Positions 91-14,223 of a stretch of DNA of 14,223 nucleotides are shown here, one piece after another. Every line of letters begins with the position of its first letter. Positions within the stretch are counted from its first letter, which is position 1. Position numbers and translations under genes: made by a program. This DNA is from a virus: UHGV virus genome UHGV-0138819; one strand, given 5' to 3'. The notes below the pieces were generated by a model that made no database searches, was not told the DNA's origin, and saw only the letters and a list, made by a program, of their open reading frames with translations.

Positions 91-187
91 TTTATTAACG
101 CTATTGTAAAACTGCCGTTTTTCCTCGTTTACAACGGGTGCGCTGGACATTACCATCCTCCTCTGCGATTTATCATCGCAACCAAAC

Positions 188-258
188 GACTCGGGGTGCC
201 CTTCTGCGTGAAGGCTGAGAAATACCCGTATCACCTGATCTGGATAATGCCAGCGTAG
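188..258 (+). repeat. attL: native 5' portion of the thiM TPP riboswitch aptamer; left copy of the 71-bp imperfect direct repeat
   Basis: 188-258 equals 13557-13627 except at 206, 207 and 232. The left copy carries the bases I recall for the canonical E. coli thi-box (CUUCUGCGUGAAGG, GUAUCACC). Homology ends abruptly after 258. Confidence 0.8.
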
Positions 259-319
259 TCTTGGCGATTATCCAAGATATAAATCAAAGACTTGCACGGT
301 TTTTTCTCTTCATTTTGTT

Positions 320-1702
320 ATGTTGTCACTCAGAGAGACAAACAAAATGGCACACACACCGATCAATCACACCATCATCCGTAACGGGATCTACTACGTC
401 AGCTTTCGCCTGTCGGGTCATAAATATTTCCGTCGGTCGTTAGAGACAGATAGCCACAGCCACGCGCAACTCTTGATGTCATTTGCATCTCCAGCCATTC
501 CATTAGTCAAACGTGGAACCATTCACCCGGATCAGTTTGGTCAACGTCTTTCTGATTTCAGCAACCGCTTAAAGCAACAGAATGAACACTGGCTGGTTCA
601 ACAATTTCTCAGTGATGAACGGCGCAATCTTCAGCCGATAGTTGTTCAGGAATACCGGGAGACTGTTACACCTTCAGAAGATGAGGAAGAACAAACTGAA
701 GCACAGTCAAAGGATGTGTTAACACTGGCTGGCGCTTGGAATATGTACAAAAAGGAGAAAGCCCAAAACTGGACGAAGGCAATTTCACAGGCCAATGAGC
801 GCTTTATGGAAGTCATGTTCATTGTCCTCGGTGCATCAACAGACGTAACGACGATAACCAAGCAGGACATCAAGCAGGTGATGGAAGTTGTTGAAAACTT
901 ACCAAAGCGTGTTGTACAGCCTTATCGGTCGATGACGGTTCAGCAACTGATCGAGTGTGATGATGTGCCACCTGAAGATTTGGTTGGCGCTGAGTCTATC
1001 CACAAGCATTTGAAGATTTACAAATCGCTCTTCAAAACCTTCCTGACTGATAATAAAGATATTCTGGAGAAGTCTCCGACAGATGGAGTAGTCGCCGCAC
1101 CGTCAAAAGCGAGGTTTGGTGCATACAGTGCGGCAGAAATGAGAAAGTTTGTGGGGTGGGCGCTCAAGCAGCCTGATGGCTGGCAGAAATGGATCACCTT
1201 GTTGTTGGCGTATACGGGAGCCAGAAGAGGGGAGATCGCCAAGCTGGAGAAATCACAGATCAAATTTGATGAAGATAGCCAGCGGCACTATCTCCTGATA
1301 GCGGAAGGAGGGCAGGGGAAAACCGAGAATGCTACAAGGCAGGTGGCTATCCATCCCAAACTGATCGAGTGGGGTTTTCTTGATTTTGTAAACCGCCAAT
1401 GGAAAGAGAAAATCTTCTCGCCTGTGTCAGGTAAGAACATGCCAAAAATCGGCAAAGTCTTGGCTGATGTCCGTGATCAGCTTGGTATTCCGTACCTTGA
1501 TGATTATGGGCAGCGGCGATTAGTGCATAGTTTCCGGCATACCATGATTTCAACCTGTTTAGCTGGTTGGGTTGGGAACTTAGCGCACTTGCAACAGGTG
1601 GTTGGGCACGAGAAAAGCGGGTCAGGGATCACTCGGCGCTATCTTCATACGTTCCCGCTTTCCACTGTTTGTTATGTGATTGATGGCTTGGGTTGGTTGT
1701 AG
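320..1702 (+). CDS. int: Tyrosine site-specific integrase
   Basis: 460-aa ORF. C-terminal catalytic motifs are visible: TGARRGE (Arg), HSFRHT (His-x-x-Arg), VGHE, RRYLH (Tyr nucleophile). Alternative start at ATG 347 with a purine-rich AGAGAG upstream. Confidence 0.85.
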   Translation: MLSLRETNKMAHTPINHTIIRNGIYYVSFRLSGHKYFRRSLETDSHSHAQLLMSFASPAIPLVKRGTIHPDQFGQRLSDFSNRLKQQNEHWLVQQFLSDERRNLQPIVVQEYRETVTPSEDEEEQTEAQSKDVLTLAGAWNMYKKEKAQNWTKAISQANERFMEVMFIVLGASTDVTTITKQDIKQVMEVVENLPKRVVQPYRSMTVQQLIECDDVPPEDLVGAESIHKHLKIYKSLFKTFLTDNKDILEKSPTDGVVAAPSKARFGAYSAAEMRKFVGWALKQPDGWQKWITLLLAYTGARRGEIAKLEKSQIKFDEDSQRHYLLIAEGGQGKTENATRQVAIHPKLIEWGFLDFVNRQWKEKIFSPVSGKNMPKIGKVLADVRDQLGIPYLDDYGQRRLVHSFRHTMISTCLAGWVGNLAHLQQVVGHEKSGSGITRRYLHTFPLSTVCYVIDGLGWL

Positions 1703-1755
1703 AAGCAGAGTGATGGTTAAGTGTGAAGTGTATCAAAAAATCAGTAAGATTCGTC

Positions 1756-1785
1756 TTGAAAGTACATTTTGGATAACCATATAAA
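1756..1785 (+). promoter_or_regulatory. Candidate sigma70 promoter for the cargo genes (TTGAAA, 18-bp spacer, TATAAA)
   Basis: -35 TTGAAA at 1756-1761 and -10 TATAAA at 1780-1785, about 35 bp upstream of the ATG at 1820. Sequence-only prediction. Confidence 0.3.
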
Positions 1786-1819
1786 GCTTAAGTTAATTCC
1801 AACCAGATGAGGATGAGTA

Positions 1820-2077
1820 ATGGCAAGATGTACAGATCAGCACCGCTATTGGGATTTTTTCGAACACTTACCCGACGACCAAGGTGGTATTGGCAGACAT
1901 AAATGTTGCGGTTGTGCTTACGAAAAAGGTTATCAAGCAGGATTAATACGATCCGAAATTTTGAACATTGATCTTGATTCCTTACATGAAAGCCAAGCAG
2001 GCACTGTCCGTCATAAGAGTCCACATGCAGCCTATGCTCAAGGATATTTAGATGGTATTACAGCATCTTATCGGTAA
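1820..2077 (+). CDS. Hypothetical small Cys/His-rich protein (85 aa)
   Basis: ORF with AGGA 6 nt upstream of the ATG. Contains HKCCGC and two AYxxGY repeats. No family recognised. Confidence 0.45.
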   Translation: MARCTDQHRYWDFFEHLPDDQGGIGRHKCCGCAYEKGYQAGLIRSEILNIDLDSLHESQAGTVRHKSPHAAYAQGYLDGITASYR

Positions 2078-2109
2078 TAGCCGCCTAAAAGACAGGAGAT
2101 ACGCTATTT

Positions 2110-2541
2110 ATGTCTGGAATGTTAGCAAGCACAGCGGCCGCTGTAGGAATAATTGATAAAGCTGTAGGAATTGCAAAGAAACTTGCTGATGATGGCGGTG
2201 AACTCGATAAGGCGACGCTTAAACTTGAGCTTGCAAACCTCATGACAGAGCTTGCCAGTGTTAAAATGGAAGTTATCACCACCCAGGCGCTACTTTTTGA
2301 AGCGGAACAGAAGAACAAGCAACTTGAAAACCAATTGAAAGATAAGGAATCATTTGTTTTCAATGCCCCTCTTTATTGGAAAAATGGTGACCAAGTTCCG
2401 TTTTGCCCAAAATGTTATGAGGGTGAAGATAAGAAAGTTCATTTACGCTTAATTGTTCACAATGGTACACCGCAACTAGGACTTCCTCCTGAAAACAAAT
2501 GGGCGTGTATGCATTGTCGTTTTTCGCACTCGAACATTTAG
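2110..2541 (+). CDS. Hypothetical protein, N-terminal coiled coil plus C-terminal Cys4 zinc-ribbon-like motif (143 aa)
   Basis: AGGAGA 10 nt upstream of the ATG. C-terminus has CPKC ...(~30 aa)... CMHC. Heptad-like N-terminal segment. Confidence 0.55.
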   Translation: MSGMLASTAAAVGIIDKAVGIAKKLADDGGELDKATLKLELANLMTELASVKMEVITTQALLFEAEQKNKQLENQLKDKESFVFNAPLYWKNGDQVPFCPKCYEGEDKKVHLRLIVHNGTPQLGLPPENKWACMHCRFSHSNI

Positions 2542-2549
2542 TAAATCAA

Positions 2550-2759
2550 TCATTTTTCGTTTTCAGAAGAGTTAAACGTCTTAGAATAGGGGCAGGATTG
2601 AGAGCGAGTCATCAGGGTAAACAGGTAAACGCTGTTTTCGTAAGTGCAAAGCCTCTTCCCGCCCTGCAACTCCTGTTCGTCGGGGTTGCTCATGGTGATT
2701 TTGCTTGCCGCAGCATTAAAAGCCAGCAACATACCGCAAATCAACAGAATACCTCTCAT
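2550..2759 (-). CDS. Hypothetical small secreted protein (69 aa) with N-terminal signal peptide
   Basis: Strong SD (AAGGGGGAGA) just upstream of the ATG on the minus strand. N-terminus MRGILLICGMLLAFNAAAS looks like a signal peptide. Convergent with the 2110-2541 gene. Confidence 0.5.
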   Translation of the reverse strand: MRGILLICGMLLAFNAAASKITMSNPDEQELQGGKRLCTYENSVYLFTLMTRSQSCPYSKTFNSSENEK

Positions 2760-2831
2760 ATCTCCCCCTTGAATGAACTGCCCTCTTCAATGCTAAATTG
2801 CATCCATCGTTCAACGATTATAGTAACAAAG

Positions 2832-2872
2832 TTGATCAATTTTACCGATCGATTTCGTAATTTCGATCGATT
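2832..2872. promoter_or_regulatory. Three GATC sites and two copies of CGATCGATT in the divergent intergenic region
   Basis: GATC at 2834-2837, 2847-2850 and 2865-2868. CGATCGATT at 2846-2854 and 2864-2872. Lies between the minus-strand gene start (2759) and the plus-strand gene start (~2928). Confidence 0.35.
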
Positions 2873-2927
2873 AAAATAATTAAAAATGTTAAGGCACATG
2901 TCGATGGTGTACTTAATCTATTCATCT

Positions 2928-3692
2928 ATGGAGGCTGTTTTGAAAAAGATTCTTGCATTACCTCTTATGTTCTTTTCCTTCTCGTCCTTCTCTGAAGGCG
3001 TTTCGTCTACAGATGTACAACCATACCCTGAGTACCTGGCGGCCTATGTAAAAACGTTGATTGCTGCTGGATGTGAAGAAACATTGAAAGGCGGTTCTGA
3101 GGACGTATTGATCAAACGGGCAACGGAGGGAATGAAGAAGGGCACGACGGGTTACGATAATGTACACAATGCTATCGTGTTGGGGGCTGGTTTCGGTAAT
3201 GGACTGAAGGAAAAAGGAAAACTTATCACAAAAGAAAAAATCGCGATTGATAGTTGTGGTGGTGCAGCGGCCTATACCATGATGCAAAAAGAATTTATAA
3301 AAACGGTCGTTGCTAGTATGACTAATCCGGAACAATCGCAGGTTGCCGATAGTAAACCCAAAGTGCCAGCTTCTGATGATGCAATTTACCGTACAAAAGC
3401 ACTAGCTCTGGCTGAACTTTATAAAGCTAACGAGGTTGCAGCCGATGACAAAATTGGTGGTCGTAAGGTGGAAGTAACCGGAACTGTACAGGACATAACA
3501 AAAAATTTCACGGATGATGTAGTTCTTAAACTTGAAAGCGGTAATCGCTTCATGCCAGTCAGTCTGAGTATGTCTGATTCAGAAAAGGCGAAAGCGTCGA
3601 AATTGGAAAAGGGCCAGAAGATCACCGTGACTTGCGAAAAGATGCAGTTTTTCATCGGTGCACCGTCTGGCGGAAACTGCACCTTTAACTAA
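2928..3692 (+). CDS. Hypothetical secreted protein (~255 aa) with signal peptide and a possible OB-fold-like C-terminal domain
   Basis: Long ORF ending TAA 3690-3692. N-terminus MEAVLKKILALPLMFFSFSSFSEG looks like a signal peptide. Start ambiguous: ATG 2886, 2898, 2928, or TTG 2940 preceded by GGAGG at 2930-2934. The OB-fold resemblance is my guess. Confidence 0.6.
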   Translation: MEAVLKKILALPLMFFSFSSFSEGVSSTDVQPYPEYLAAYVKTLIAAGCEETLKGGSEDVLIKRATEGMKKGTTGYDNVHNAIVLGAGFGNGLKEKGKLITKEKIAIDSCGGAAAYTMMQKEFIKTVVASMTNPEQSQVADSKPKVPASDDAIYRTKALALAELYKANEVAADDKIGGRKVEVTGTVQDITKNFTDDVVLKLESGNRFMPVSLSMSDSEKAKASKLEKGQKITVTCEKMQFFIGAPSGGNCTFN

Positions 3693-3706
3693 TCTGTCAT
3701 ACGGTC

Positions 3707-3727
3707 TGCCGGGTAAAATTCCCGGCA
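3707..3727 (+). other. Hairpin just downstream of the cargo CDS (7-bp stem TGCCGGG/CCCGGCA, 7-nt loop), no U-tract
   Basis: Inverted repeat seen directly. Not followed by a T-run, so terminator function is uncertain. Confidence 0.3.
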
Positions 3728-4986
3728 ACTCATCTACCCCACCTCATGGATGTCCCTGCTATTTGACGATCCAGCTTACATGCTCTTGCTGAAAATATCT
3801 TACGGCTCTCTGGGCCAGGTGCCTGACGTGACAGACGATCCCTCAATAATTTCTTATCTTCTTGCTGAAATATCGCAGAGCCGACAGGCCCAGTAACGTA
3901 TTTCACCACTTCATCCCGTAGAGCATCACAGCAGGGAAAACTTGCCGCAATAGGGCATTCTACTGTTCGTTTTCTGGTCTATTTAACATAATGGTTCTTA
4001 TAAGTACTTGACTGGAATGGTCAGGTATTACTTTTCGGAACGTTGACGCGAAGCTGGGTACACAACAGCGATTTCACCAACAGAAGGAAAGCATTCAGGA
4101 GGATTCGAGGTGAGTTCTCTTGTTCAAGGATTTTGGATGAGTTTGCCTGGTCACCACACAATTTCAGGTTTCAGACCTTTGAGGCTGCCAGTGTGTCAAA
4201 CGCCATAAAAGCACTTTTTTCTGTTTACCAGCAGACACAAAGCCACTACACCGACGTTACCACAACGGGCTGAAGGTCTGCCATCACCTGGTGATATTCA
4301 CGAGCCTGACCGCCACTGTTTCGTACCATTTCCCAAAACAATGTAAACAGCCAACCCACCAATCCCTTCTACGCTCCACCAGAAGCGCTACAGTGCGTTA
4401 TCCCCCCAGATGTAAACTGACGTACCGATAATCCACGACATCCCACAGCGCGATACAGGAACCACCAGAGGACATCTGTTTTAGTTTTAATGTGTCTTTT
4501 TTATTTTTTGTAAAAAGATGGTTCAGAAAGTGGGTTGTGTTTAGCACCCATTCAATTGGCGGATTCGCCTAGGCCGCGCCATTACTGGCTTCGCTGCATG
4601 CACCACACCATAACGCCCATAGGTACAAACTTGTGATTTGTACGTTTAGTGACCACTTTAGCATGATTAACTACGGATTATAGGCTATTTGAGGTGTATT
4701 TAATCTACTTTGTTCGCAGGATAGCCAATGATAAAGATCATCCACCAAATTTTCACAGAAAACTAGTATAGGGTTGCCAATCTTCAGCCAGCGCGGAGAA
4801 TGGTCGGTATTTTCAGATGAAAGCGGGGGAGGGAGATGATCAATTCTCGGAGCGGATCAGGTGCCTGGACCGCCTCAGGTGTTGCCGTCGATTGTGCCAT
4901 TGAAGCATGACGCGGACATATCAAACCAGAAGTTTTCATCGGTACGTTGGTCGCTTGGATGACTTGGAAAATTCTCACCCGGTGAT

Positions 4987-5075
4987 ACCTGCACGATTTT
5001 CGTGTACCCACCCCCTCGATTTTCGAGCACCTACCTGCACGATTTTCGAGTAGGGGGTAGTCGATTTTCGAGCAC
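4987..5075. repeat. Iteron-like array: four CGATTTTCG-centred repeats at 22-23 bp spacing, followed by an AT-rich tract; candidate replication origin or protein-binding array
   Basis: CGATTTTCG at 4994, 5017, 5040 and 5062. ACCTGCACGATTTTCG is exact at 4987-5002 and 5033-5048. CGATTTTCGAGCAC is exact at 5017-5030 and 5062-5075. AATAATAATAAATAACAAT follows at 5076-5094. Confidence 0.55.
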
Positions 5076-5649
5076 AATAATAATAAATAACAATCTCCAT
5101 AAAAGAACTGATAAGAAAAGTACCTCCAGGTCGAGAGCACGGAATGACGGTTGGTCATTCTGTTAGTTTTAATAGTGATGCTTCTGCATCGCTCCGCTCT
5201 GCAATGGCTGGTCAGCCACTTCAGATATGTTTGTGGTAAGAAGCTCACCTTTGCTGACGTGAAACAGCCGCGCCATCTCGTGACCTTCTAACCCTCGTTA
5301 ACACATCGCTACGCTCTGTGACTCGGGTAACCCGACAGGCTACGCCAGAGAGCTACGCTCTCACTCTGTGTGGAAGCTGCGAACTTGTTCGCCATATGTG
5401 GATCGGAGCACGGCGGAGAGGACTGCTTTGCATCTGTCCGGTTCACTCCGGGGCGGCGCGGGTTGTCTAACTGACTTCCTCAGCGCCTCTCTACGGCGTT
5501 TAAATGGTGTGGGTAACACGATGGTACTGCTATAACGACGAGTCCCCGCAGAACGCGTCACAGAACGATCTAGCACTATTGACAAAGATTTTTTAAACTT
5601 GTAATGTTATGGTGATTATTATGCATTATAAAATGCTACATGATAATGA

Positions 5650-5678
5650 TTGCTATTTACAAACAAATCTGATACAAT
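5650..5678 (+). promoter_or_regulatory. Candidate sigma70 promoter for the 5824-10406 operon (TTGCTA, 17-bp spacer, TACAAT)
   Basis: -35 TTGCTA at 5650-5655 and -10 TACAAT at 5673-5678 in an AT-rich region about 145 bp upstream of the first operon ATG. Confidence 0.4.
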
Positions 5679-5823
5679 AGATTTTAGTAGGGTAATGATT
5701 TACCTACGAATCCTCGAATAATTCTGCCGTCATCACGACATTCCTTGTCAACCTCACGGCAATACAAAATGGGTTACAAATAGAACCTCCGCGAATAATT
5801 CTTTTAACAGAACGGAGAACCCA

Positions 5824-6270
5824 ATGAATAAACCAAAATCCCAACGTCTCGACCTGACCACTATGACAGGCGAGCAGATCGCTGATCTCATCCTGAACGG
5901 CAAATACACCAAATCAGCTTTGTGGGCCTTCATTAGTAGAAACGGCGGGGCAGACGCTGTACATGCTCGACTTCCTCAGATCGCCGTCTGCCTGCAAATC
6001 CTGAAGCAGGCGCGGAAGAAAGCGAAGCAGGCACGAGTGGTTAAGACGGTGCTGAAGCCTCTGAGCAATAAATATGCTGAGGGTAATTCCTTAACGCAAA
6101 TCCTGAATCCTGTGTTACAGGGCTACCGCGAGCTATATAGAGAAAAACTGAATCTGGACCTGACACCAGAACAGGTGATCTTGCTCTTGATCGCCACTGA
6201 TGGTGTGGAACGTCTGGAATCCTACGGTTACACCTGTGCGGGTGACTTCCCGACCGCAACCGCAGTCTAA
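5824..6270 (+). CDS. Hypothetical protein (148 aa), first gene of the rightward operon
   Basis: GGAGA 8 nt upstream of the ATG. No family recognised. Confidence 0.6.
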   Translation: MNKPKSQRLDLTTMTGEQIADLILNGKYTKSALWAFISRNGGADAVHARLPQIAVCLQILKQARKKAKQARVVKTVLKPLSNKYAEGNSLTQILNPVLQGYRELYREKLNLDLTPEQVILLLIATDGVERLESYGYTCAGDFPTATAV

Positions 6271-6357
6271 CAACACTGAACAAAACCTGAGCCGGTTCGC
6301 CTTTGGGCGACCACTGGCGGGAGGTCTTTTGTACCTAAAACGAGGAGGACAACTTGA

Positions 6358-6561
6358 ATGAACATCAAATTTCAACAGCACGTTTATCAGGCTCTACTAG
6401 CTGAGGCCAAAAGGCAGGACAAGCCCCTGGCACGGCTCTGTAATGAAATCTTGGAGACTGCCGCGAACATTTTCGACAACACACCAGACATCAAACCAGC
6501 ATTAGCCAGCAAGGCGACACTTTACGGAGAACAGAATGAGCAAACAGAACCGGGACAGTAA
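6358..6561 (+). CDS. Small putative ribbon-helix-helix (Arc/MetJ/CopG-like) DNA-binding protein (67 aa)
   Basis: AGGAGGA upstream of the ATG. N-terminal strand-like MNIKFQQ followed by two predicted helices (QALLAEAKRQ, PLARLCNEILETA). RHH assignment is by pattern only. Confidence 0.55.
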   Translation: MNIKFQQHVYQALLAEAKRQDKPLARLCNEILETAANIFDNTPDIKPALASKATLYGEQNEQTEPGQ

Positions 6562-7282
6562 GGATTTTGTAAAACTTGAATACAGCATTCTCGACCTTAC
6601 CGAGTACAACGGCCTGACCATTAATGGCAACATGAAAATTTTGCTATCTCTGGTTTACAGCTATGACAAAACAGGCAGAACTTATTACGAGTCTGTTGGC
6701 ATGATTGGTAAACGTTGCGGCTGCAAGCCCGAAGCCGTTCGTAATTTCAGGAACAAGCTTCGTGAAGCGGGAATGATCACTTTTGAGGAAGAGCAGGGGA
6801 GAACACACAAAATTTCTCCGGTCGAACTCGATCCATCGTTGATGGTTTTTCTTGACGATCATAATTCCACGCAGGTGAGTAATAGAAAAGTGGAAACCGA
6901 GGAGAGCGGTAAGAATGAGCAGAAACGTGATGTGGAATCTTTCGTGGTGGAACCTGCCGCGCCTGTTGCTGGAAAACCAGACGGCCTACCTGTTGTGGAT
7001 ATTCCTGTCGATGCTGATGTACCTGCCAATGATGATGCGGTGAACGCTTCTGATAGGTATACCGATGAACAATTAGGCACCAAGCTGAGGCGATGGCGCA
7101 ATTGGGGACTGGATGAAGAAGCAAAAGCGTTTTGTCTCTCTCATGGTATCAGCAGCGATGAGGACAGCATGAATCTGTTTATTCAAAATTATCATGTACC
7201 CGCACCGGAGTCAGTAGAACAACAGGTTAACGCCCCAGCAGATGAGCTGCCGCTTGATTATGATGACTCGATCCCTTTCTGA
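6536..7282 (+). CDS. Hypothetical protein (248 aa) with a putative winged-helix DNA-binding segment and acidic C-terminal region; candidate replication initiator or regulator
   Basis: GGAGA 5 nt upstream of the ATG. Overlaps the previous ORF by 26 nt. Segment YESVGMIGKRCGCKPEAVRNFRNKLREAGMI resembles wH/HTH domains. C-terminal half is D/E-rich. Confidence 0.55.
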   Translation: MSKQNRDSKDFVKLEYSILDLTEYNGLTINGNMKILLSLVYSYDKTGRTYYESVGMIGKRCGCKPEAVRNFRNKLREAGMITFEEEQGRTHKISPVELDPSLMVFLDDHNSTQVSNRKVETEESGKNEQKRDVESFVVEPAAPVAGKPDGLPVVDIPVDADVPANDDAVNASDRYTDEQLGTKLRRWRNWGLDEEAKAFCLSHGISSDEDSMNLFIQNYHVPAPESVEQQVNAPADELPLDYDDSIPF

Positions 7283-7296
7283 TACTGGAGGAATAA

Positions 7297-7818
7297 TTGT
7301 GTGATGTTGCCAACAGCCTGACGGCTGAAACCCTTACGGTGCGAAGCACTTTACCAGAGGTAAACAAATCCGGTGCTGACGCCCCTGATTTGTCCCGTTT
7401 TTACAAGGCCCGCTCTCGTGATACCTCGTTGATCGAGACTGCTAAAAAAATGCTCGTTCACGGTTACACCCCAGGCAAAACGGCGCTGCTCCTACGCTTG
7501 CCGTATGACCTGGTAAAAGGCCTTTACGATAACTCGTGGAATCCTCGCTGTCGCAAGATAAGTAATACCAGTCAGTACGCTACTAAGCGAATGGCCCGAA
7601 TGTACTACGAATCCGGCGCAATGCTGGCAAAAATCTGTGCTGACCTTCAACTGCCTCTATTCACTGTGGTAACGCTGCTCAAGCGTGAAGGAATCACTGA
7701 AAAAGAAATGGCATCTCGAATGCCTGTTAGTGATGATCCGTTGTTCATTGAGTACCGGAAGACTATTTCACGCAAGCAGGCAGCGCCCCAACGCCGATCA
7801 CCACGACTGCATTATTAA
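7297..7818 (+). CDS. Hypothetical protein (173 aa), possible tandem HTH-like segments
   Basis: TTG start 5 nt after GGAGG (7287-7291). No family recognised. Confidence 0.5.
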   Translation: MCDVANSLTAETLTVRSTLPEVNKSGADAPDLSRFYKARSRDTSLIETAKKMLVHGYTPGKTALLLRLPYDLVKGLYDNSWNPRCRKISNTSQYATKRMARMYYESGAMLAKICADLQLPLFTVVTLLKREGITEKEMASRMPVSDDPLFIEYRKTISRKQAAPQRRSPRLHY

Positions 7819-7836
7819 TACCCCAGCCGGGGAAAC

Positions 7837-8265
7837 TTGACCCTATTTGAATATTTATCCTTTCTGCCGTTAGCGGTAGCTGTTCTCCAATGGCTTCGTG
7901 ACGGCCTGGACCTCTACAGGAAACATAACAATATGAATAACATTGAAGCAATCCGCGCCAGTATCCGGGAAGCAATGACCGCAGGAACAGACGAACCGGA
8001 AGATCTGAACAAATCCGCTGAAGAAGCATTGGCGGAGGCGGTGCAGAGTTACCTGTCCGCTTCGACTGCAACAGCCAGCGAGCCAGCCCCAAAAAGTGGT
8101 AAAACCATCAAGGAAAAAGGGATCGCTCTGTGCCACCAAGCCCAAGGTTATAGCGCTAATCTGCGTCCGGTAAGTCTCATGATGAAGGCAAGTCTTGATG
8201 AGCTAACACCTGAACAACGCGCCGCGCTTGAGCGTCTGGGTTACGATATCAATCAGGGGGTGTGA
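7837..8265 (+). CDS. Hypothetical protein (142 aa from TTG 7837, or 111 aa from ATG 7933)
   Basis: TTG 7837 preceded by GGGGA. In-frame ATG at 7933 preceded by AGGAAA. Its stop TGA (8263-8265) overlaps the next ATG (8265-8267). Confidence 0.5.
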   Translation: MTLFEYLSFLPLAVAVLQWLRDGLDLYRKHNNMNNIEAIRASIREAMTAGTDEPEDLNKSAEEALAEAVQSYLSASTATASEPAPKSGKTIKEKGIALCHQAQGYSANLRPVSLMMKASLDELTPEQRAALERLGYDINQGV

Positions 8266-10406
8266 TGTCTGGCACAAATAAGATTGTTACCAGCACCGTT
8301 AATGAAATCTCGTGGATCACAGACGATGCCTCATATCAAAAAGCCAAAAAGAAGATTATCTCGCTTAAGGCTGCTCATGAGAAACCAGCTAAAGCGCTTG
8401 AGAAGGCCCAGAAGCGGACCGTCCAGAGTGAAGGCAAAGCAGCACTAGCCGCAGCGAAAGCCCAGACAGCGAAGCTACGCCAGGCTGAACAATTGTCAAA
8501 ACAGCAACAGAAACAAGCTCAGATACAAGCCAAAATGGAACGGGATGCAGTCTCCCACGCTAATAAAATGACCTCATTACAGGCGCGTCAGTTATCCCAG
8601 CAGGAACAGGCCGCACGGCAGAATGCCAGACTAGCAGCGATATCTGACAAGGTGAGACAGGCGAGTCGCTCCCGTGCAATGACCTACAATCCCAACATGC
8701 CTGGAGTTCACTCCGATCCATCTCTGGTGGCACGTCAAAATGCAGCGATGAACCGTGGTCACGGCGCTGTTGCTGCTGACATCGCAGCCACCAAAAAGGC
8801 GATGGCCTTGGAGGAGAAGCGTCAGCGTGAGAAAGAGGCAGGCCTTAAGCGCGAGGTGACTTATTACAACAGTTTGCGCCGTAGCGCTCTGACTCTGGCA
8901 AACGTGAACGGCGCTGACGTTGCAACCCGGTACAAAGCCATCAGTGCAGCAAAAGAGGCACTTAAAGCCCAGAAAGAAGAGCGCTATACGGTTGAAGAGA
9001 CCCGCTTCGAAATGGCTCGTATCACCACCGAATTACGCAAGCAGGCTCGTCTGCAACAGCGTATGACCCGTGAGCAGAAAGCCGCAGGTGTTCGTGCTGG
9101 TCGTGTACGCACAGAAAGCCGTGGTGGTAGAGCTGGTCTTGCAGCTGCTGGTGTTATTGGTGGTGCGTCGTTAGTGGGTAGTATGGGCGTTTCTCGTGTC
9201 GGTCAGACCCTCCAGGGAAGCCTTGAGCGCTCTCGCGATGTGAAAAAACTCCAGCAGTACGGGATCAGCAACCTTGAGTTCGCTGCACTTCAGGATCTCT
9301 CGATGAGCCGTGTTGGTTACTCACTGAGTGCTGACAAGCTGGCTGACCTCAACAAGGACACAACCGAAAAGGCCGGGGAATTGTTAAACACCGGCTCTTT
9401 CAAACGTAACAAGAAAACTGGACAGGTGAATTTCAGCGGCGGTGGCGAGTTCGCAGATATCATCAACAATGTGCTGACCTCCACCAACGGTAACCAGAAG
9501 GTAGCACAGAAGGTGATCGGAGAACTGCAAAAGCTGGATTTTCCGACCTTCATCACTTACCTGAAACAGTTGCAGAAAACTTTCAAATGGACGGACAACC
9601 AGACCCGGCACCTGGCTGAGGCTGTGAATGATGGTTCGGTCTTCCTCGAAGTGTTCAATGATGAGGGGCAGGGACTTATCCAGCGTATGCATCAACTCTC
9701 TTCTGAAGGATGGACCCTATCTGATGCGCAGCAAGCCAACCTCGATAAACTGGCGGCGTTAGGTGCTGAGTACAACCGAGTGCAAACCAGCCTTGCAGAT
9801 CATTTCTCAGCCTCGTTTGTTGAAGGCCTGGGGCAGTACGCTGCCAATACTGAAACTCTACGTCAGAAGATGACTGGACTGATCCCAATTTCCGATGCCC
9901 TCGGCGTTGCCCTTGGTGAGCTAACCACCAACATTCTCTCCTTCTCTGGTCGAGTCGGTGAAGAACTTAAGAAAGGCGCGACATTGCCGGATGCGGTGTA
10001 TACGAGCGTGGTAGATGAATCTGCAAACGGTGCTGCCGATTGGATTAAGGAAAAGACAGGCTTTGATCCACGTAGCATCGGTCAGACGCTTAAGCAGATT
10101 TACCCGTGGCTGGATAGTTCAGCACCGAGCAATATTGGCTCAGGCACGGCGTATAACGATCCAGCGCTAGCGTTGAATGTTCCTAGCCTGAACTATCTGA
10201 CACCCCAGCAACCGACGTTTACGGTTCCGACAATTGACAGCATGACGCTGCGACAGCCGATTCCTGTCAGTGTTACCGGGCAAGCGAACATTAATCAGCA
10301 GATGGATGTGTTTGTCCATGACGATAAGATCGCAGGGCTGGTTGATACCAAGATAAGGGAGAACAACCACGCGCAGAATAACCTCATCCTTGGGATTGCA
10401 GACTAA
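8265..10406 (+). CDS. Large hypothetical protein (~713 aa): Ala/Lys/Gln-rich coiled-coil N-terminal ~300 aa, Gly-rich hydrophobic segment, unrecognised C-terminal region
   Basis: Uninterrupted 2.1 kb ORF with start overlapping the upstream stop (TGATG). Hydrophobic GLAAAGVIGGASLVGSMGV mid-protein. No Walker A, no relaxase HxH motif, no primase zinc-finger pattern seen. Confidence 0.7.
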   Translation: MSGTNKIVTSTVNEISWITDDASYQKAKKKIISLKAAHEKPAKALEKAQKRTVQSEGKAALAAAKAQTAKLRQAEQLSKQQQKQAQIQAKMERDAVSHANKMTSLQARQLSQQEQAARQNARLAAISDKVRQASRSRAMTYNPNMPGVHSDPSLVARQNAAMNRGHGAVAADIAATKKAMALEEKRQREKEAGLKREVTYYNSLRRSALTLANVNGADVATRYKAISAAKEALKAQKEERYTVEETRFEMARITTELRKQARLQQRMTREQKAAGVRAGRVRTESRGGRAGLAAAGVIGGASLVGSMGVSRVGQTLQGSLERSRDVKKLQQYGISNLEFAALQDLSMSRVGYSLSADKLADLNKDTTEKAGELLNTGSFKRNKKTGQVNFSGGGEFADIINNVLTSTNGNQKVAQKVIGELQKLDFPTFITYLKQLQKTFKWTDNQTRHLAEAVNDGSVFLEVFNDEGQGLIQRMHQLSSEGWTLSDAQQANLDKLAALGAEYNRVQTSLADHFSASFVEGLGQYAANTETLRQKMTGLIPISDALGVALGELTTNILSFSGRVGEELKKGATLPDAVYTSVVDESANGAADWIKEKTGFDPRSIGQTLKQIYPWLDSSAPSNIGSGTAYNDPALALNVPSLNYLTPQQPTFTVPTIDSMTLRQPIPVSVTGQANINQQMDVFVHDDKIAGLVDTKIRENNHAQNNLILGIAD

Positions 10407-10440
10407 AATCATCGTTCCGTCGAAAATGGCGCAGCAAATT

Positions 10441-10460
10441 GGCCCACACGAGAGAGGGCC
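10441..10460 (+). terminator. Weak terminator-like hairpin after the 714-aa gene
   Basis: GGCCC (10441-10445) pairs with GGGCC (10456-10460) around a 10-nt loop, followed by a T-rich stretch (GTTATTGTTTTTGTTGTTG). Confidence 0.25.
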
Positions 10461-10490
10461 GTTGAATTCGCCATGTTATTGTTTTTGTTG

Positions 10491-10520
10491 TTGCAAATGA
10501 TAATCATTCGTGTTAAAATA
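10491..10520 (+). promoter_or_regulatory. Fur-box-like palindrome (AATGAT-A-ATCATT) overlapping a candidate sigma70 promoter (TTGCAA, 18-bp spacer, TAAAAT)
   Basis: Perfect 6-1-6 inverted repeat at 10495-10507 inside 10493-10511, about 14/19 match to the Fur consensus GATAATGATAATCATTATC as I recall it. -35 TTGCAA 10491-10496, -10 TAAAAT 10515-10520. Confidence 0.35.
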
Positions 10521-10926
10521 ATATACAAGGTGAATTACAACAGCCAAATGTTTTCCCTTCTCCTTAGGAATCAAAGTGCGCTTTTCCCAGAGCGCCTTTT
10601 CTCATACAGCCAATATTCGCACCCTCTCACGGTAAGGTTAGGCCATTGCCGCTGGCTGTATCAGAAAAGATTTTCTCCGACCTTGGATCGGGGATTTGCC
10701 AAAGCCTTTCATCCTCGGAAGGCCGTCTTGCCAGACGAAAACTGGCATTGAGTGCGGCAGCGAAGATATGAGGTCTCCCGCTGCTGTGCTCCCTCATTCC
10801 TGAAGCGTGACCCGCCGATCATGCTTTCCAAATCTCTCCATCAGAAAATACCATCGTGAAGCTATTAGCAACGCATGTTGCTAACCCGTAAACGGGTGAA
10901 TTTCATCATCTCCGATGATCTACCAA

Positions 10927-10962
10927 CCGGGGCAGGCGTTTTCCTGCCTCCGGCTCTTTTTC
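10927..10962 (+). terminator. Terminator-like hairpin (CCGGGGCAGG / CCTGCC-T-CCGG) followed by CTCTTTTTCT
   Basis: About 10-bp GC-rich stem with one bulge, T-rich tract a few nt downstream. Confidence 0.4.
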
Positions 10963-10984
10963 TGTTGGGAATACAAATAAAAGA

Positions 10985-11010
10985 ATGCCGTCCGATGGAC
11001 GGTATTTTTT
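10985..11010. terminator. Rho-independent terminator, probably bidirectional
   Basis: Stem ATGCCGTCC / GGACGGTAT with loop GAT, then TTTTT on the plus strand. The plus-strand AAATAAAAG just upstream gives a U-rich tract on the minus strand. Confidence 0.6.
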
Positions 11011-11049
11011 CAACACAACCCGGCATATTCGCCGGATTATAAAAATTGC

Positions 11050-11412
11050 ATGGAGATACAACAAAATATGGCATTCGAACATGAAAGCAAAACCCCACAG
11101 GATGTATTGGTTTATACCGATAGCCCGATCTTTCATAAGCGCACCGTGATCTTTGATCTGGCTGCTGATGTGACTTGTGGTGATGTGATTAACCCGACCA
11201 CTGGCGCGGCATACGTTGCAGCCGATGCTGATAACTGTGCTGTAGCTCTGCAAAATCAAATCGCTGGTGATGCCCGTAGCCTGGTCATTTCAGACCGTGG
11301 CTGTGTGTTCAATCCATCTGGTCTGGTTGTAGCGGCTGCTGCAAAAGATGCTGCTTACGCTGCCCTTGTTAAGCAAGGCAACCGCATTGCTGACGCAAAC
11401 ACTGCAATCTAA
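11050..11412 (+). CDS. Putative phage head decoration-like protein (120 aa, or 114 aa from ATG 11068)
   Basis: Small Ala/Gly/Val/Asp-rich protein immediately upstream of a ~340-aa capsid-like ORF, the lambda D-E arrangement. Product call is inference from size, composition and gene order. GGAGA at 11052-11056 fits the 11068 start. Confidence 0.5.
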   Translation: MEIQQNMAFEHESKTPQDVLVYTDSPIFHKRTVIFDLAADVTCGDVINPTTGAAYVAADADNCAVALQNQIAGDARSLVISDRGCVFNPSGLVVAAAAKDAAYAALVKQGNRIADANTAI

Positions 11413-11430
11413 TCAAGGAGTGATAACAAT

Positions 11431-12447
11431 ATGAAATTAAGTGATTTTACTAACCTTTCCGGTCAGTTTGTGAAGCCAAGCGGCGAGGGGTTCCTTCTGT
11501 CCAGCCTGGGGATCTTTACCAGCCGTCCAAGTGATACGCAAATCATCGCGCTCGACACACTGGAAGATGTGCAGCGTGAAGTGACCAAATCTGTTGCCCG
11601 TTATGGTTCTGAAATGTCCGGTCTAAACTTCCCTAAAGCGGCTAACGTGACTGTTCAGGCTCCACTGCATGTCTACAGCTCAACCATCACCAGCCAGGAT
11701 TGGCAGGGGAAACGTCAGCCGGGAACAAATCGCCAGATGACCGCTGAAGATGTAGTTGCTAATCATACCCTGAAGCACTACCTGCAAACCCGCCGTGATG
11801 TTGAATATGCCATGGCGCAGAGCCTGCTTCACAATACTGTAGAGGCGACACACCTTCGTGAAGGTCCTGATCTGAACTGGCAAACCTTCTGGGGTATTAA
11901 CCAGCCGTCTGCTGTGGTGAAAACTGGCATCAGTGCCAACGTTATTACTGAGATGCAGAACGCTGTCACGCTGCTGAAGAAAAATCTGGGTGGCTGGTCT
12001 TCCAGCATCAAGCAGGTTTATCTGCTAGCGAGTCCGAGTCTTTTCACCGCCATTCAAGGCAACCCAACCGCATATCAGGCGGCTCTGTTTGGTGCTACGT
12101 CCCGTGACATCATTTTCCCTGACACTTTGGGCGCATATGATCGATACAACATCGGGCGCGTAACTGTAGTTCAGGTTGACGATCCGCTATACGGCATTGC
12201 AGATGGTGAAGGCTACATGCTGGCGACGTTCTCCAATGTTGTTGAAGGCGACCTTTCACCTTATATGACTTACCAGACTCCGGCGAGCCGTCATGCTGAC
12301 GTTGCTAATGGTCCGGTTTATCCGTCTTACCATTACGTTCTGCGTGATAAGTTCATGAATTATGAGGTGGTCAGCGAGCTATCACAAATTCAGATCCCAA
12401 TGCGTCCAGACTTCGTTTTGAAAATTACGATGGATGACGCGGCGTAA
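11431..12447 (+). CDS. Putative major capsid protein (338 aa), possibly lambda gpE-like
   Basis: AGGAG upstream of the ATG. Length and position after the small decoration-like ORF fit a major capsid protein. Family assignment not verified. Confidence 0.6.
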   Translation: MKLSDFTNLSGQFVKPSGEGFLLSSLGIFTSRPSDTQIIALDTLEDVQREVTKSVARYGSEMSGLNFPKAANVTVQAPLHVYSSTITSQDWQGKRQPGTNRQMTAEDVVANHTLKHYLQTRRDVEYAMAQSLLHNTVEATHLREGPDLNWQTFWGINQPSAVVKTGISANVITEMQNAVTLLKKNLGGWSSSIKQVYLLASPSLFTAIQGNPTAYQAALFGATSRDIIFPDTLGAYDRYNIGRVTVVQVDDPLYGIADGEGYMLATFSNVVEGDLSPYMTYQTPASRHADVANGPVYPSYHYVLRDKFMNYEVVSELSQIQIPMRPDFVLKITMDDAA

Positions 12448-12509
12448 GACAGCGTATTTTGGGGGCGCATTGCCCCCGCTGCAGGCGAGCCAAAGGAAAG
12501 GAGATACAT

Positions 12510-12722
12510 ATGAAATTAGCTTTGATCGGTACTGGCAACATGCCGCTGATGCAGTGGATTCTAGATGGCAAGGGCGATGATGCGATTATCAACATGTCAG
12601 CGTTAGCACGCAGGCTTGAGTGTAGTCGTTCCAGCCTACTTGACCGCATCCATACGCATGGATTCGACAGCGCTATTAGGTACTACCTCAACGAACAGCG
12701 ACAACGAAAACTGAAAACATGA
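12510..12722 (+). CDS. Small HTH-like protein (70 aa); candidate DNA-binding, excisionase or packaging accessory
   Basis: Strong SD (AAGGAAAGGAGA) 6 nt before ATG 12510. The ORF track extends it to 12459, but the SD supports 12510. INMSALARRLECSRSSLLDRI resembles a helix-turn-helix. Confidence 0.55.
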   Translation: MKLALIGTGNMPLMQWILDGKGDDAIINMSALARRLECSRSSLLDRIHTHGFDSAIRYYLNEQRQRKLKT

Positions 12723-12723
12723 G

Positions 12724-12749
12724 AGCCGGGTTAATCCCGGCTTTTTTTA
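12724..12749. terminator. Strong rho-independent terminator shared by convergent genes
   Basis: AGCCGGG-TTAAT-CCCGGCT followed by 7 T (12743-12749), 1 nt after the plus-strand stop. The hairpin overlaps the last codons and stop of the minus-strand CDS. Confidence 0.8.
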
Positions 12750-13366
12750 TGTACTTTGCTGAAGTCAAAAAGATTGTCAAATTTAATGATATCTAATCCA
12801 GAGATAGCGTGATTAACATCTTTCATCATTGCGCCATGTTCATCATAAGCGTTACGTATTGCCATGAATTCTTCTGGTGTTATCTGTGCTTTAAGCAAAG
12901 CCTGCATGATGAGAGTCATCAGTTTTGAGATGGCTATTTGCGTATTACCAGAAGATCGAAGAAGGGCGTTGAATGGCTCCCAGGAAACCTTTTTAATCAG
13001 AACATTATAGTGACTTAACTTGATGAAAGAGCTACCAATGCGAAAGGTATTTTCCGTCATATCTTTCAAGGATTCTTGAATATGATAATAGCTTTCTTCG
13101 TCGGCTTTTTGTCCTGATTTCGCCAGTGTGTCGAGAAAAGTCATAATGCGGTTTAAGTCAAAGCGCATACGATTGTAACGGCTTCTGGTGCTATCAATTT
13201 CTTCTTTAAGAGCGATTGCTGAATCAATTGCCCGCTCCATTTTTCTCGTCTTCACAATCTCCTGAAGTTTAACCCCTCCGAAGATGACGCCGCCAACCAC
13301 ACTCAACGCTGTTACAGCATTCGAAGCGATAGAGATAATGTTATCCCATGCTTGTAAATCCATCAT
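12731..13366 (-). CDS. Hypothetical membrane-anchored protein (211 aa) with one N-terminal transmembrane helix; candidate exclusion or defence gene
   Basis: AAGAGG SD before the ATG on the minus strand. N-terminus IISIASNAVTALSVVGGVIFGGV looks like a TM helix. Appears AT-rich by eye. Convergent with the capsid operon, adjacent to attR. Confidence 0.65.
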   Translation of the reverse strand: MMDLQAWDNIISIASNAVTALSVVGGVIFGGVKLQEIVKTRKMERAIDSAIALKEEIDSTRSRYNRMRFDLNRIMTFLDTLAKSGQKADEESYYHIQESLKDMTENTFRIGSSFIKLSHYNVLIKKVSWEPFNALLRSSGNTQIAISKLMTLIMQALLKAQITPEEFMAIRNAYDEHGAMMKDVNHAISGLDIIKFDNLFDFSKVHKKSRD

Positions 13367-13405
13367 AACCTCTTTTTTTAATGCGGTAGTTGACGACTTA
13401 AGAGC

Positions 13406-13435
13406 ATTCTACATGGCACACATTGTGTCACTCAA
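13406..13435 (-). promoter_or_regulatory. Candidate sigma70 promoter for the 12731-13366 gene (minus strand: TTGAGT, 18-bp spacer, TAGAAT)
   Basis: Reverse complement of 13406-13411 is TAGAAT and of 13430-13435 is TTGAGT, about 35 nt upstream of the minus-strand ATG. Confidence 0.3.
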
Positions 13436-13556
13436 CCTGTCACACATAGACCAAAAGGGCCGCTTTTACCGTTTACAAGACTTCCCGCTGGCATTACTAT
13501 CCTGATCAGGGATTAATGAGGAGCATTAATCGCAAGCTTTTGATTTTATAGTACAT

Positions 13557-13627
13557 GACTCGGGGTGCCCTTCTTTGTGAAGGCTGAGAAATACCCGTAT
13601 TACCTGATCTGGATAATGCCAGCGTAG
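13557..13627 (+). repeat. attR: element-derived riboswitch-like 5' arm plus shared core; right copy of the 71-bp direct repeat
   Basis: Differs from 188-258 at three positions (TT for GC at 13575-13576, T for C at 13601). Canonical host sequence resumes after 13627 (GGAAGTCACGG...). Confidence 0.8.
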
Positions 13628-13681
13628 GGAAGTCACGGACCACCAGGTCATTGCTTCTTCACGTTATGGCAGGAGCAAACT
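13557..13681 (+). promoter_or_regulatory. TPP (thi-box) riboswitch in the thiM 5' leader, hybrid of element-derived 5' aptamer half and host 3' half plus expression platform
   Basis: GGGGTGCCCTTCT..GTGAAGGCTGAGAAATACCCGTAT.ACCTGATCTGGATAATGCCAGCGTAGGGAAGTCACGGACCACCAGGTCATTGCTTCTTCACGTTATGGCAGGAGCAAACTATG matches the E. coli thiM riboswitch as I recall it, apart from three substitutions in the 5' half. Confidence 0.85.
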
Positions 13682-14223
13682 ATGCAAGTCGACCTGCTGA
13701 GTTCAGCGCAATCTGCGCACGCGTTACACCTTTTTCACCAACATTCCCCTCTTGTGCACTGCATGACCAACGATGTGGTGCAAACTTTTACTGCCAATAC
13801 CTTGCTGGCGCTCGGCGCATCGCCAGCGATGGTTATCGAAACCGAAGAGGCCAGTCAGTTTGCGGCTATCGCCAGTGCCTTGTTGATTAACGTTGGCACA
13901 CTGACGCAGCCACGCGCACAGGCGATGCGTGCTGCCGTTGAGCAAGCAAAAAGCTCTCAAACACCCTGGACGCTTGATCCAGTAGCGGTTGGTGCGCTCG
14001 ATTATCGCCGCCATTTTTGTCATGAATTTTTATCTTTTAAACCGGCAGCGATACGTGGTAATGCTTCGGAAATCATGGCATTAGCTGGCGTTGCTAATGG
14101 CGGACGGGGAGTGGATACCACTGACGCCGCAGCTAACGCGATACCCGCTGCACAAACACTGGCACGGGAAACTGGCGCAATCGTCGTGGTCACTGGCGAG
14201 GTGGATTATGTTACCGATGGACA
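13682..14223 (+). CDS. thiM: Hydroxyethylthiazole kinase, 5' part (continues beyond the window)
   Basis: Translation from ATG 13682 reads [60 protein letters not shown]..., matching E. coli ThiM as I recall it. Preceded by the TPP riboswitch. Absent from the ORF track only because there is no in-window stop. Confidence 0.9.

Follow-up and report, generated by a model that had tools for sequence, protein, structure and literature searches.

A gene for a tyrosine integrase, int, lies near the left end of a 14,223-nt stretch of DNA (UHGV virus genome UHGV-0138819; the window hereafter), where it follows host sequence carrying the promoter and part of the thiamine pyrophosphate (TPP) riboswitch of thiM. 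An earlier note on this DNA had placed the thiM promoter and a truncated aptamer directly upstream of int, with host sequence from the rcnR stop codon to position 258 and int beginning within ~60–90 nt of it. Both points were confirmed: on the same strand as int, the promoter lies at 128–156 and the aptamer, truncated at its 3′ end, runs to G258, while the rcnR stop codon is at 88–90, island DNA begins at 259, and the ATG of int at 347 is 88 nt past the junction. The features of the left end are as follows.

1–90, + strand: 3′ end of host rcnR, with the stop codon TAA at 88–90 (from the sequence and the rcnR annotation in strain TC24, which is 99.9% identical)
128–156, + strand: native thiM promoter, −35 TTTACA (128–133), 17-nt spacer, −10 TACCAT (151–156), inferred transcription start ~164
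188–258, + strand: left copy of a 71-nt attachment-site (att) identity block, direct repeat D1, which is the host-derived 5′ three-quarters of the thiM TPP aptamer; the Rfam TPP match covers 182–278
240–276, no strand assigned: core region of the left attachment site (attL), with C arm CTGGATAATGCCAG (240–253), central CGTAGT (254–259) and C′ arm CTTGGCGATTATCCAAG (260–276)
282–294, + strand: integration host factor (IHF)-consensus site of the P′ arm, AATCAAAGACTTG
310–350, + strand: predicted hairpin in the int translation-initiation region, which pairs the AUG (347–349) and encloses the Shine–Dalgarno (SD) sequence GAGAGA (333–338)
324–332, + strand: predicted arm-type integrase site P′1, TGTCACTCA, directly 5′ of the int SD
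347–1702, + strand: int, tyrosine recombinase of 451 aa (Pfam PF00589, PHROG 1), with the same start called by PGAP in TC24
348–356, + strand: predicted arm-type integrase site P′2, TGGCACACA, overlapping int codons 1–4

Two attachment sites in the thiM leader

A direct repeat of 71 nt (188–258 and 13557–13627), identical at 68 of the 71 bases, bounds an island at 259–13556. The uninterrupted site, which we reconstructed by joining 100–258 to 13628–13800, was present at a coverage of at least 80% in 4728 of 5426 complete E. coli genomes, and E. coli genomes whose site is empty have a thiM promoter identical to the one at 128–156. Thus the window has a direct repeat at both island ends and an intact target in other genomes, as expected of an attachment site. 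The same junction, with the int family of the window adjoining rcnR, was found in at least 28 E. coli genomes. The three differences inside the repeat are informative, because attL carries the native E. coli variants, of K-12 type (206–207 and 232), and the right attachment site (attR) carries the island variants, which places strand exchange 3′ of 232, within 233–258. The adjacent gene encodes a recombinase: its product matched PF00589 with 29.3 bits (cut-off 27.1) and PHROG 1 with E = 1e-25, and the translation carries the catalytic motifs ARRGE, HSFRHT and RRYLH. We read positions 91–346 as the attL junction of an integrative island, satellite-like and 13.4 kb long, whose tyrosine integrase recombines within DNA encoding the thiM TPP riboswitch, and we give this reading a probability of about 0.75.

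The right end of the island supplies the other half of the arrangement, and its features are the following.

13414–13422, 13426–13434 and 13438–13446, + strand: three predicted arm-type sites of the P arm, 12 nt apart, all matches to TGKCACWCA
13472–13500, + strand: island-borne promoter-like element, TTTACA-17-TACTAT, replacing the thiM promoter
13533–13545, − strand: IHF-consensus site of the P arm, a consensus match
13551–13647, + strand: complete thiM TPP riboswitch aptamer rebuilt at attR (Rfam RF00059, 73.6 bits, full length), containing the right copy of repeat D1

The aptamer at attR is made of the island copy (13557–13627) and the host 3′ part from 13628 onward; it is the one complete TPP aptamer that Rfam found, just 5′ of thiM, whose ATG is at 13682 (thiM being annotated in TC24). 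The right end of the island (13440–13556) is homologous to, but diverged from, the thiM promoter region, and a promoter-like element was seen, as judged by eye, at the equivalent position in every island type. Because the island brings a promoter and a 5′ aptamer copy, thiMD regains at attR, on integration, both a full riboswitch and a promoter. Hence thiMD receives from the island a promoter and the 5′ three-quarters of its aptamer, and what faces int is the native promoter with a truncated aptamer.

At attL, the segment 259–356 looks like the P′ arm of a lambda-type attP in its layout. Around the crossover there is a core-type inverted repeat, in which 241–248 (TGGATAAT) and 267–274 (ATTATCCA) are 100% complementary, with an imperfect extension to 240–253 and 260–276. 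The C′ motif TC(C/T)TGGC(G/A)ATTATCC after GCGTAG is kept in most relatives; the exceptions are L012, L016 and L017, which have CCATGGCAATTATTC, and L018 and L019, which diverge. The IHF consensus WATCAANNNNTTR has only two matches in the window, at 282–294 (+) and 13533–13545 (−), so that one flanks the core on either side and, at the level of a consensus match, each stands between the core and the arm sites. The P′ copy is kept in most relatives, as judged by eye from the alignment.

The putative arm-type sites are repeated in both arms and are distinct from the core. In the whole window TGKCACWCA is matched five times, always on the + strand and within the att arms; 0.67 matches were expected and none of 200 shuffles reached five, although this statistic is optimistic, the motif having been defined after the sites were seen. 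The covariation across island types is the stronger argument for these sites. Among about 20 related islands the arm motif co-varies with the int type, being TGTCACWCA, GRGACACA or GRGGTACA, and in islands of the latter two kinds the P arm has two or three copies, a further copy immediately precedes the int SD, and another covers the ATG and codons 2–4. The copy equivalent to P′2 overlaps the int ATG in every island type examined.

Possible read-through from the thiM promoter into int

The pair TTTACA (128–133) and TACCAT (151–156), 17 nt apart, is the sole sigma70-like promoter match on the + strand within 1–800. Codon 9 of thiM begins at nt 174 in the numbering of PMC5499598, so that the thiM ATG is at +150 and transcription would start near window position 164, which fits the −10 TACCAT. 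No intrinsic terminator was predicted on the + strand in 1–800, thus none between ~164 and 347. Moreover, the chimeric leader has no C-rich, G-poor stretch resembling a Rho utilization (rut) site, the largest excess of C over G being 0.05, compared with C 0.31 and G 0.14 in the rut region of thiM, and a Rho site in this leader was rejected on its composition. With neither a terminator nor a rut-like stretch in the way, read-through from the thiM promoter into int is plausible from the sequence. The earlier note had proposed that int might be coupled to the host thiamine promoter. In the native operon, TPP works through the riboswitch, affecting both translation and Rho termination within thiM (PMC5499598, PMC1920254), and the thiM promoter itself has no known thiamine response; hence a coupling of int to this promoter would be constitutive.

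Transcripts that reach int from upstream would meet a second element. The hairpin at 310–350 is predicted at −11.1 kcal/mol, with an unpaired probability of 0.0 for the AUG. In 18 relatives 91.7% of cells were paired, compared with 34–57% when the partners were slid, and double changes occur at three pairs. An equivalent hairpin was predicted in five of the seven island types folded, including the L044 type, in which the sequence is different; L018 and L019 fold differently. In silico, this is a start-codon-sequestering hairpin of the fold-back kind, and it may damp translation of read-through transcripts. In addition, P′1 and P′2 bracket the SD and the ATG, so that Int bound at both sites could, and may, repress its own gene.

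The conserved hairpin, with its covariation and its buried AUG, would equally suit an arrangement in which int is expressed from a weak proximal promoter and is insulated from the host. The candidate is the extended −10-like TGnTATGTT at 316–324, which would put the start near 331. As it lies within the 5′ arm of the hairpin, proximal transcripts would be without that arm, and only transcripts from the thiM promoter would carry the segment 310–320 that pairs with the AUG and would be silenced. However, the proximal −10 is present only in the types of the window, L002, L005 and L011, the others having weaker candidates or none. The loop and the 3′ arm of the hairpin also hold DNA arm-type sites, so that their conservation may partly act at the DNA level, and the divergent folds of L018 and L019 also speak against this arrangement. 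We therefore regard insulation with a proximal int promoter as doubtful.

A second possibility is that a thiM-type promoter drives int in both states, the island copy (13472–13500) acting across attP in the circle and the host thiM promoter acting once the island is integrated, so that the supply of Int would be continuous and dependent on read-through. This would agree with the promoter-like elements in the P arm of every island type, which point toward the core and int, with the orientation of int and its ~86-nt spacing, which are invariant across the family, and with the uninterrupted path from promoter to gene described above. A search for a conserved sigma70 promoter in the P′ arm likewise found none, but only the type-specific extended −10. 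Nevertheless, continued expression of thiMD is reason enough for a promoter in the P arm, and the conserved hairpin over the AUG would make long read-through transcripts poor templates. We consider such a promoter swap for int unlikely.

The aptamer remnant at attL

The left copy at 188–258 contains the 5′ strand of P1, then P2, P3 and P5, and P4 minus one pair, and it is identical to the native E. coli thiM riboswitch over the 5′ 71 nt of the aptamer. The P2/P3 arm with its CUGAGA junction, the pyrimidine sensor, has the same sequence as the native E. coli aptamer and a predicted P2 pair probability of ~0.7. In contrast to the native riboswitch, the remnant is without the 3′ strand of P1, the anti-SD, the SD and the rut site. 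The last pair of P4, the J4/1 junction, the 3′ strand of P1 (AGUCA, 13631–13635) and the whole expression platform (13628–13681) are on the attR side, and neither a native P1 helix nor a platform is left at attL; in the native leader this platform is made up of the anti-SD segment and the SD, plus the rut and Rho termination sites within thiM (PMC1920254, PMC5499598). When alignment to the covariance model (CM) was forced, two of the five P1 pairs of the remnant were non-canonical.

These losses are reflected in the scores. The remnant (182–278) reached 53.6 bits, below the gathering score of 54.3 for RF00059, whereas the attR copy reached 73.6. In two other island types the attR and attL copies scored 74.9 and 53.6 (L004 type) and 71.2 and 61.3 (L044 type), and the attL remnants were 10–21 bits under their attR partners in all three types tested. 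In TC24 and strain 503025, PGAP nevertheless labels the attL remnant a TPP riboswitch (window 182–278; L001 15182–15278; L044 12220–12315).

The earlier note had pointed to GACU (188–191) and AGUC (257–260) as a possible shortened P1, and to a small hairpin, CTTGG-CGATTAT-CCAAG, at the junction. Both tetranucleotides are at these positions, but their pairing as a P1 was rejected: AGUC re-uses the P4 bases A257 and G258, the pair probability is 0, and the pairing is not conserved, five relatives (L012, L016, L017, L018 and L019) having AGCC, AGGG or AGGT in place of AGTC. The hairpin exists, at 260–276 rather than 261–277, but as part of the core site C′ and not as an RNA device. As a terminator or regulatory stem it was rejected, since it has no U-tract, no terminator was predicted, and the L003, L004 and L012 types do not conserve it. 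By themselves, a 4-nt complement and a 5-bp hairpin are no more than chance would give; both are by-products of the recombination core.

In the ViennaRNA ensemble of 163–300, P4/P5 had a probability of only ~0.001 at equilibrium, although its sequence is present except for the last P4 pair. A competitor helix of ~17 bp (238–255 with 260–278) prevails, with per-pair probabilities of 0.4–1.0 and ~0.99 in its core, and it is present in the minimum free energy structure of most relatives. The island bases 260–278, the RNA copy of C′, are thus predicted to capture the P4/P5 arm. Enforcing P2–P5 cost 13 kcal/mol and did not change the predicted accessibility of the int SD and AUG. A structural coupling between the state of the aptamer and the int ribosome-binding site (RBS) was rejected, because the unpaired probabilities of SD and AUG were identical with the aptamer enforced or free. 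In native ligand-free thiM, nt 71–86 pair with nt 108–125 (PMC1920254), so that there, as at attL, the 3′ side of the aptamer is paired with sequence lying downstream. The competitor at attL differs in that it is the island C′ site, is immediately adjacent, and is not linked to the downstream RBS.

The idea that the chimeric leader folds as a TPP-binding aptamer with a shortened P1 and makes int respond to thiamine could appeal to the intact P2, P3, CUGAGA junction and P5 and most of P4, to a score just 0.7 bits under the cut-off (and above it, at 61.3, in the L044 type), to the PGAP calls, and to the GTAGTC at the junction, which is kept in most relatives. Yet this sequence is GTAGCC, GTAGGG or GTAGGT in the five relatives named above, its conservation is accounted for by the DNA core site, the predicted ensemble is dominated by the competitor helix, there is no predicted structural link to the int SD or AUG, and the native platform, anti-SD segment and rut site are all on the attR side. 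Taken together, the loss of P1 and of the platform and the predicted capture of the P4/P5 arm speak against a control of int by TPP, which the modelling does not support and which we consider very improbable. The same holds for the coupling to TPP suggested in the earlier note, and the attL remnant itself is, on these predictions, most likely inert.

Our preferred account, an attL of the lambda type lying across the riboswitch, is as follows. The host's share is the DNA up to G258, with the thiM promoter, the leader and the 5′ part of the aptamer. From 259 on, island DNA has a P′-arm layout, with C′ at 260–276, the IHF consensus at 282–294 and the putative arm sites at 324–332 and 348–356 bracketing the RBS and ATG of int. 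The opposite end of the island has the P-arm layout, in which three arm sites and an IHF consensus are joined by a thiM-like promoter of the island and a 5′ aptamer copy. Integration thereby rebuilds the riboswitch and the thiMD promoter at attR, and the truncated aptamer at attL is a leftover. Transcripts from the constitutive thiM promoter probably enter int, translation of int is probably damped by the conserved hairpin over its AUG, and Int at P′1 and P′2 may autoregulate int.

Besides the post hoc definition of the arm motif, several points weigh against this account. The overlap as drawn is CGTAGTC in attP and CGTAGGG in attB, which differ at the last two positions, and the exact cleavage sites are uncertain. 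In addition, int may have a promoter of its own, for which the only candidate is the extended −10-like element at 316–324, found only in this island type. All the RNA behaviour described here is a thermodynamic equilibrium prediction; cotranscriptional folding could form P4/P5 first, and an aptamer without P1 may still bind TPP.

Related islands and known systems

The arrangement extends well beyond the window. In all Enterobacterales int homologues examined (63–95% aa identity; Enterobacter, Citrobacter, Klebsiella, Pantoea, Rahnella, Winslowiella, Mangrovibacter, Franconibacter, Lelliottia and Pseudenterobacter), an aptamer fragment ends ~86 nt 5′ of int on the same strand. The same thiM riboswitch site is taken in 147 of the 5426 complete E. 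coli genomes by another type of island, 7.8 kb long (L044 12129–20140, E. coli strain 503025) and with a 435-aa integrase (WP_001257775.1); at least 175 of the 5426 have one of the two int types at thiM. The L044 type has the same layout of arms, core and promoter, a different arm motif (GGGGTACA), and an aptamer copy identical to that of E. coli.

A comparison of 13440–13556 with L006 and L018 showed that the promoter-like P-arm segments of the island types are similar to native thiM promoter regions from various Enterobacterales; the island arm of L018, for example, resembles the Enterobacter host side of L006. This suggests, from sequence comparison, that every lineage of islands either took up the thiM leader of one host group or evolved together with it. 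Separately, about 700 of the 5426 E. coli genomes are without the contiguous reference thiM leader (e.g. H106 and strain 2EC1); many of them match only from window position 179 onward, and some have no second match in the genome. Such sequences suggest that this leader-divergent minority carries island remnants or an alternative, possibly island-derived, sequence 5′ of the thiM riboswitch.

More distant int homologues (28–38% aa identity; L021–L037, marine Gammaproteobacteria) all lie shortly 3′ of a full-length RNase P RNA gene, rnpB, by Rfam. The rnpB matches, on the same strand, scored 257–341 bits, for example L026 9581–9930, L028 9569–9939 and L029 9484–9824. A pattern search found no TPP aptamers beside these homologues. 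The polarity of the rnpB islands is opposite to that at thiM, as the intact copy adjoins int. L029 also has a second, partial rnpB copy (13050–13252), which looks like the other att end. With distant homologues beside rnpB, the wider integrase family seems to target DNA encoding structured RNAs.

The cargo varies among islands at the same E. coli site. In the window, the products of the island at 259–13556 include, besides the integrase, a Sie-like OB-fold protein (2886–3692), a replication-initiator-like helix-turn-helix protein (6536–7282), a 714-aa tape-measure-like protein (8262–10406) and a major capsid protein (11431–12447). No portal, terminase or protease was recognised among the subset of island open reading frames scanned, the island had no match in the phage collection, and naming of the cargo by NCBIfam and Pfam was mostly uninformative. 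The island resembles a phage satellite and may be of an unclassified kind. Its segment at 3700–5800 (~2.1 kb) has no annotated coding sequence in the identical TC24 island, and at 4986–5055 it has three palindrome-containing repeats of 23 nt in tandem (ACCTGCACGATTTTCGTGTACCC-like); lying 5′ of the replication-initiator-like gene (6536–7282), these repeats may be iterons or an origin.

The nearest parallels are islands and satellites in tRNA and tmRNA genes (e.g. those with P4-type integrases), which also use conserved DNA encoding a structured RNA as target, carry a partial copy of the target that restores its function, and have int adjoining the att site. At thiM, however, the target is a cis-regulatory riboswitch in an mRNA leader rather than a stable RNA gene, and it is the 5′ portion together with the promoter that is replaced. 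Because of this, the intact copy is at attR, far from int, and the truncated copy with the native promoter faces int. With lambda-type attP and attL the site shares the inverted repeat around the crossover, the flanking IHF consensus, and an arm motif present three times in P and twice in P′; it differs in that int is transcribed away from the core and that the P′ arm sites bracket the start codon of int. The mechanism is thus an ordinary lambda-type attL combined with the logic of tRNA and tmRNA islands, in which target and polarity differ.

The insertion elements IS10 and IS50 are protected from outside promoters by fold-back inhibition of read-through transcripts. By analogy, the hairpin at 310–350 would have its 5′ arm upstream of a candidate internal start and its 3′ arm holding the start codon; the gene here is an integrase and not a transposase, and the internal promoter is weakly supported.

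We found no description of the thiM or TPP riboswitch as an integration site in the searchable literature, which largely leaves out subscription journals. The present site is a clean and widespread case of site-specific integration into a riboswitch, found in many other Enterobacterales genera besides E. coli. The idea of a thiamine-controlled integrase is probably wrong, and a truncated attL remnant labelled as a second TPP riboswitch is a likely false positive in riboswitch surveys. In carrier strains the thiMD promoter is island DNA, and the element has to supply both the promoter and most of the sensor. On a more speculative reading, which we consider less likely than not, these islands would form an Enterobacterales family that uses a riboswitch aptamer as its att site and swaps promoters on integration: thiMD would receive the thiM-type promoter and 5′ aptamer of the island, int would come under the host thiM promoter behind a disabled aptamer, and the hairpin and the Int sites would set how much outside transcription becomes Int. 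If this is true, the island would take over transcription of a host vitamin operon, and either draw on the host promoter or insulate itself from it. The thiM junctions offer a natural system for the study of how integrases exploit, or are shielded from, host transcription across attL.

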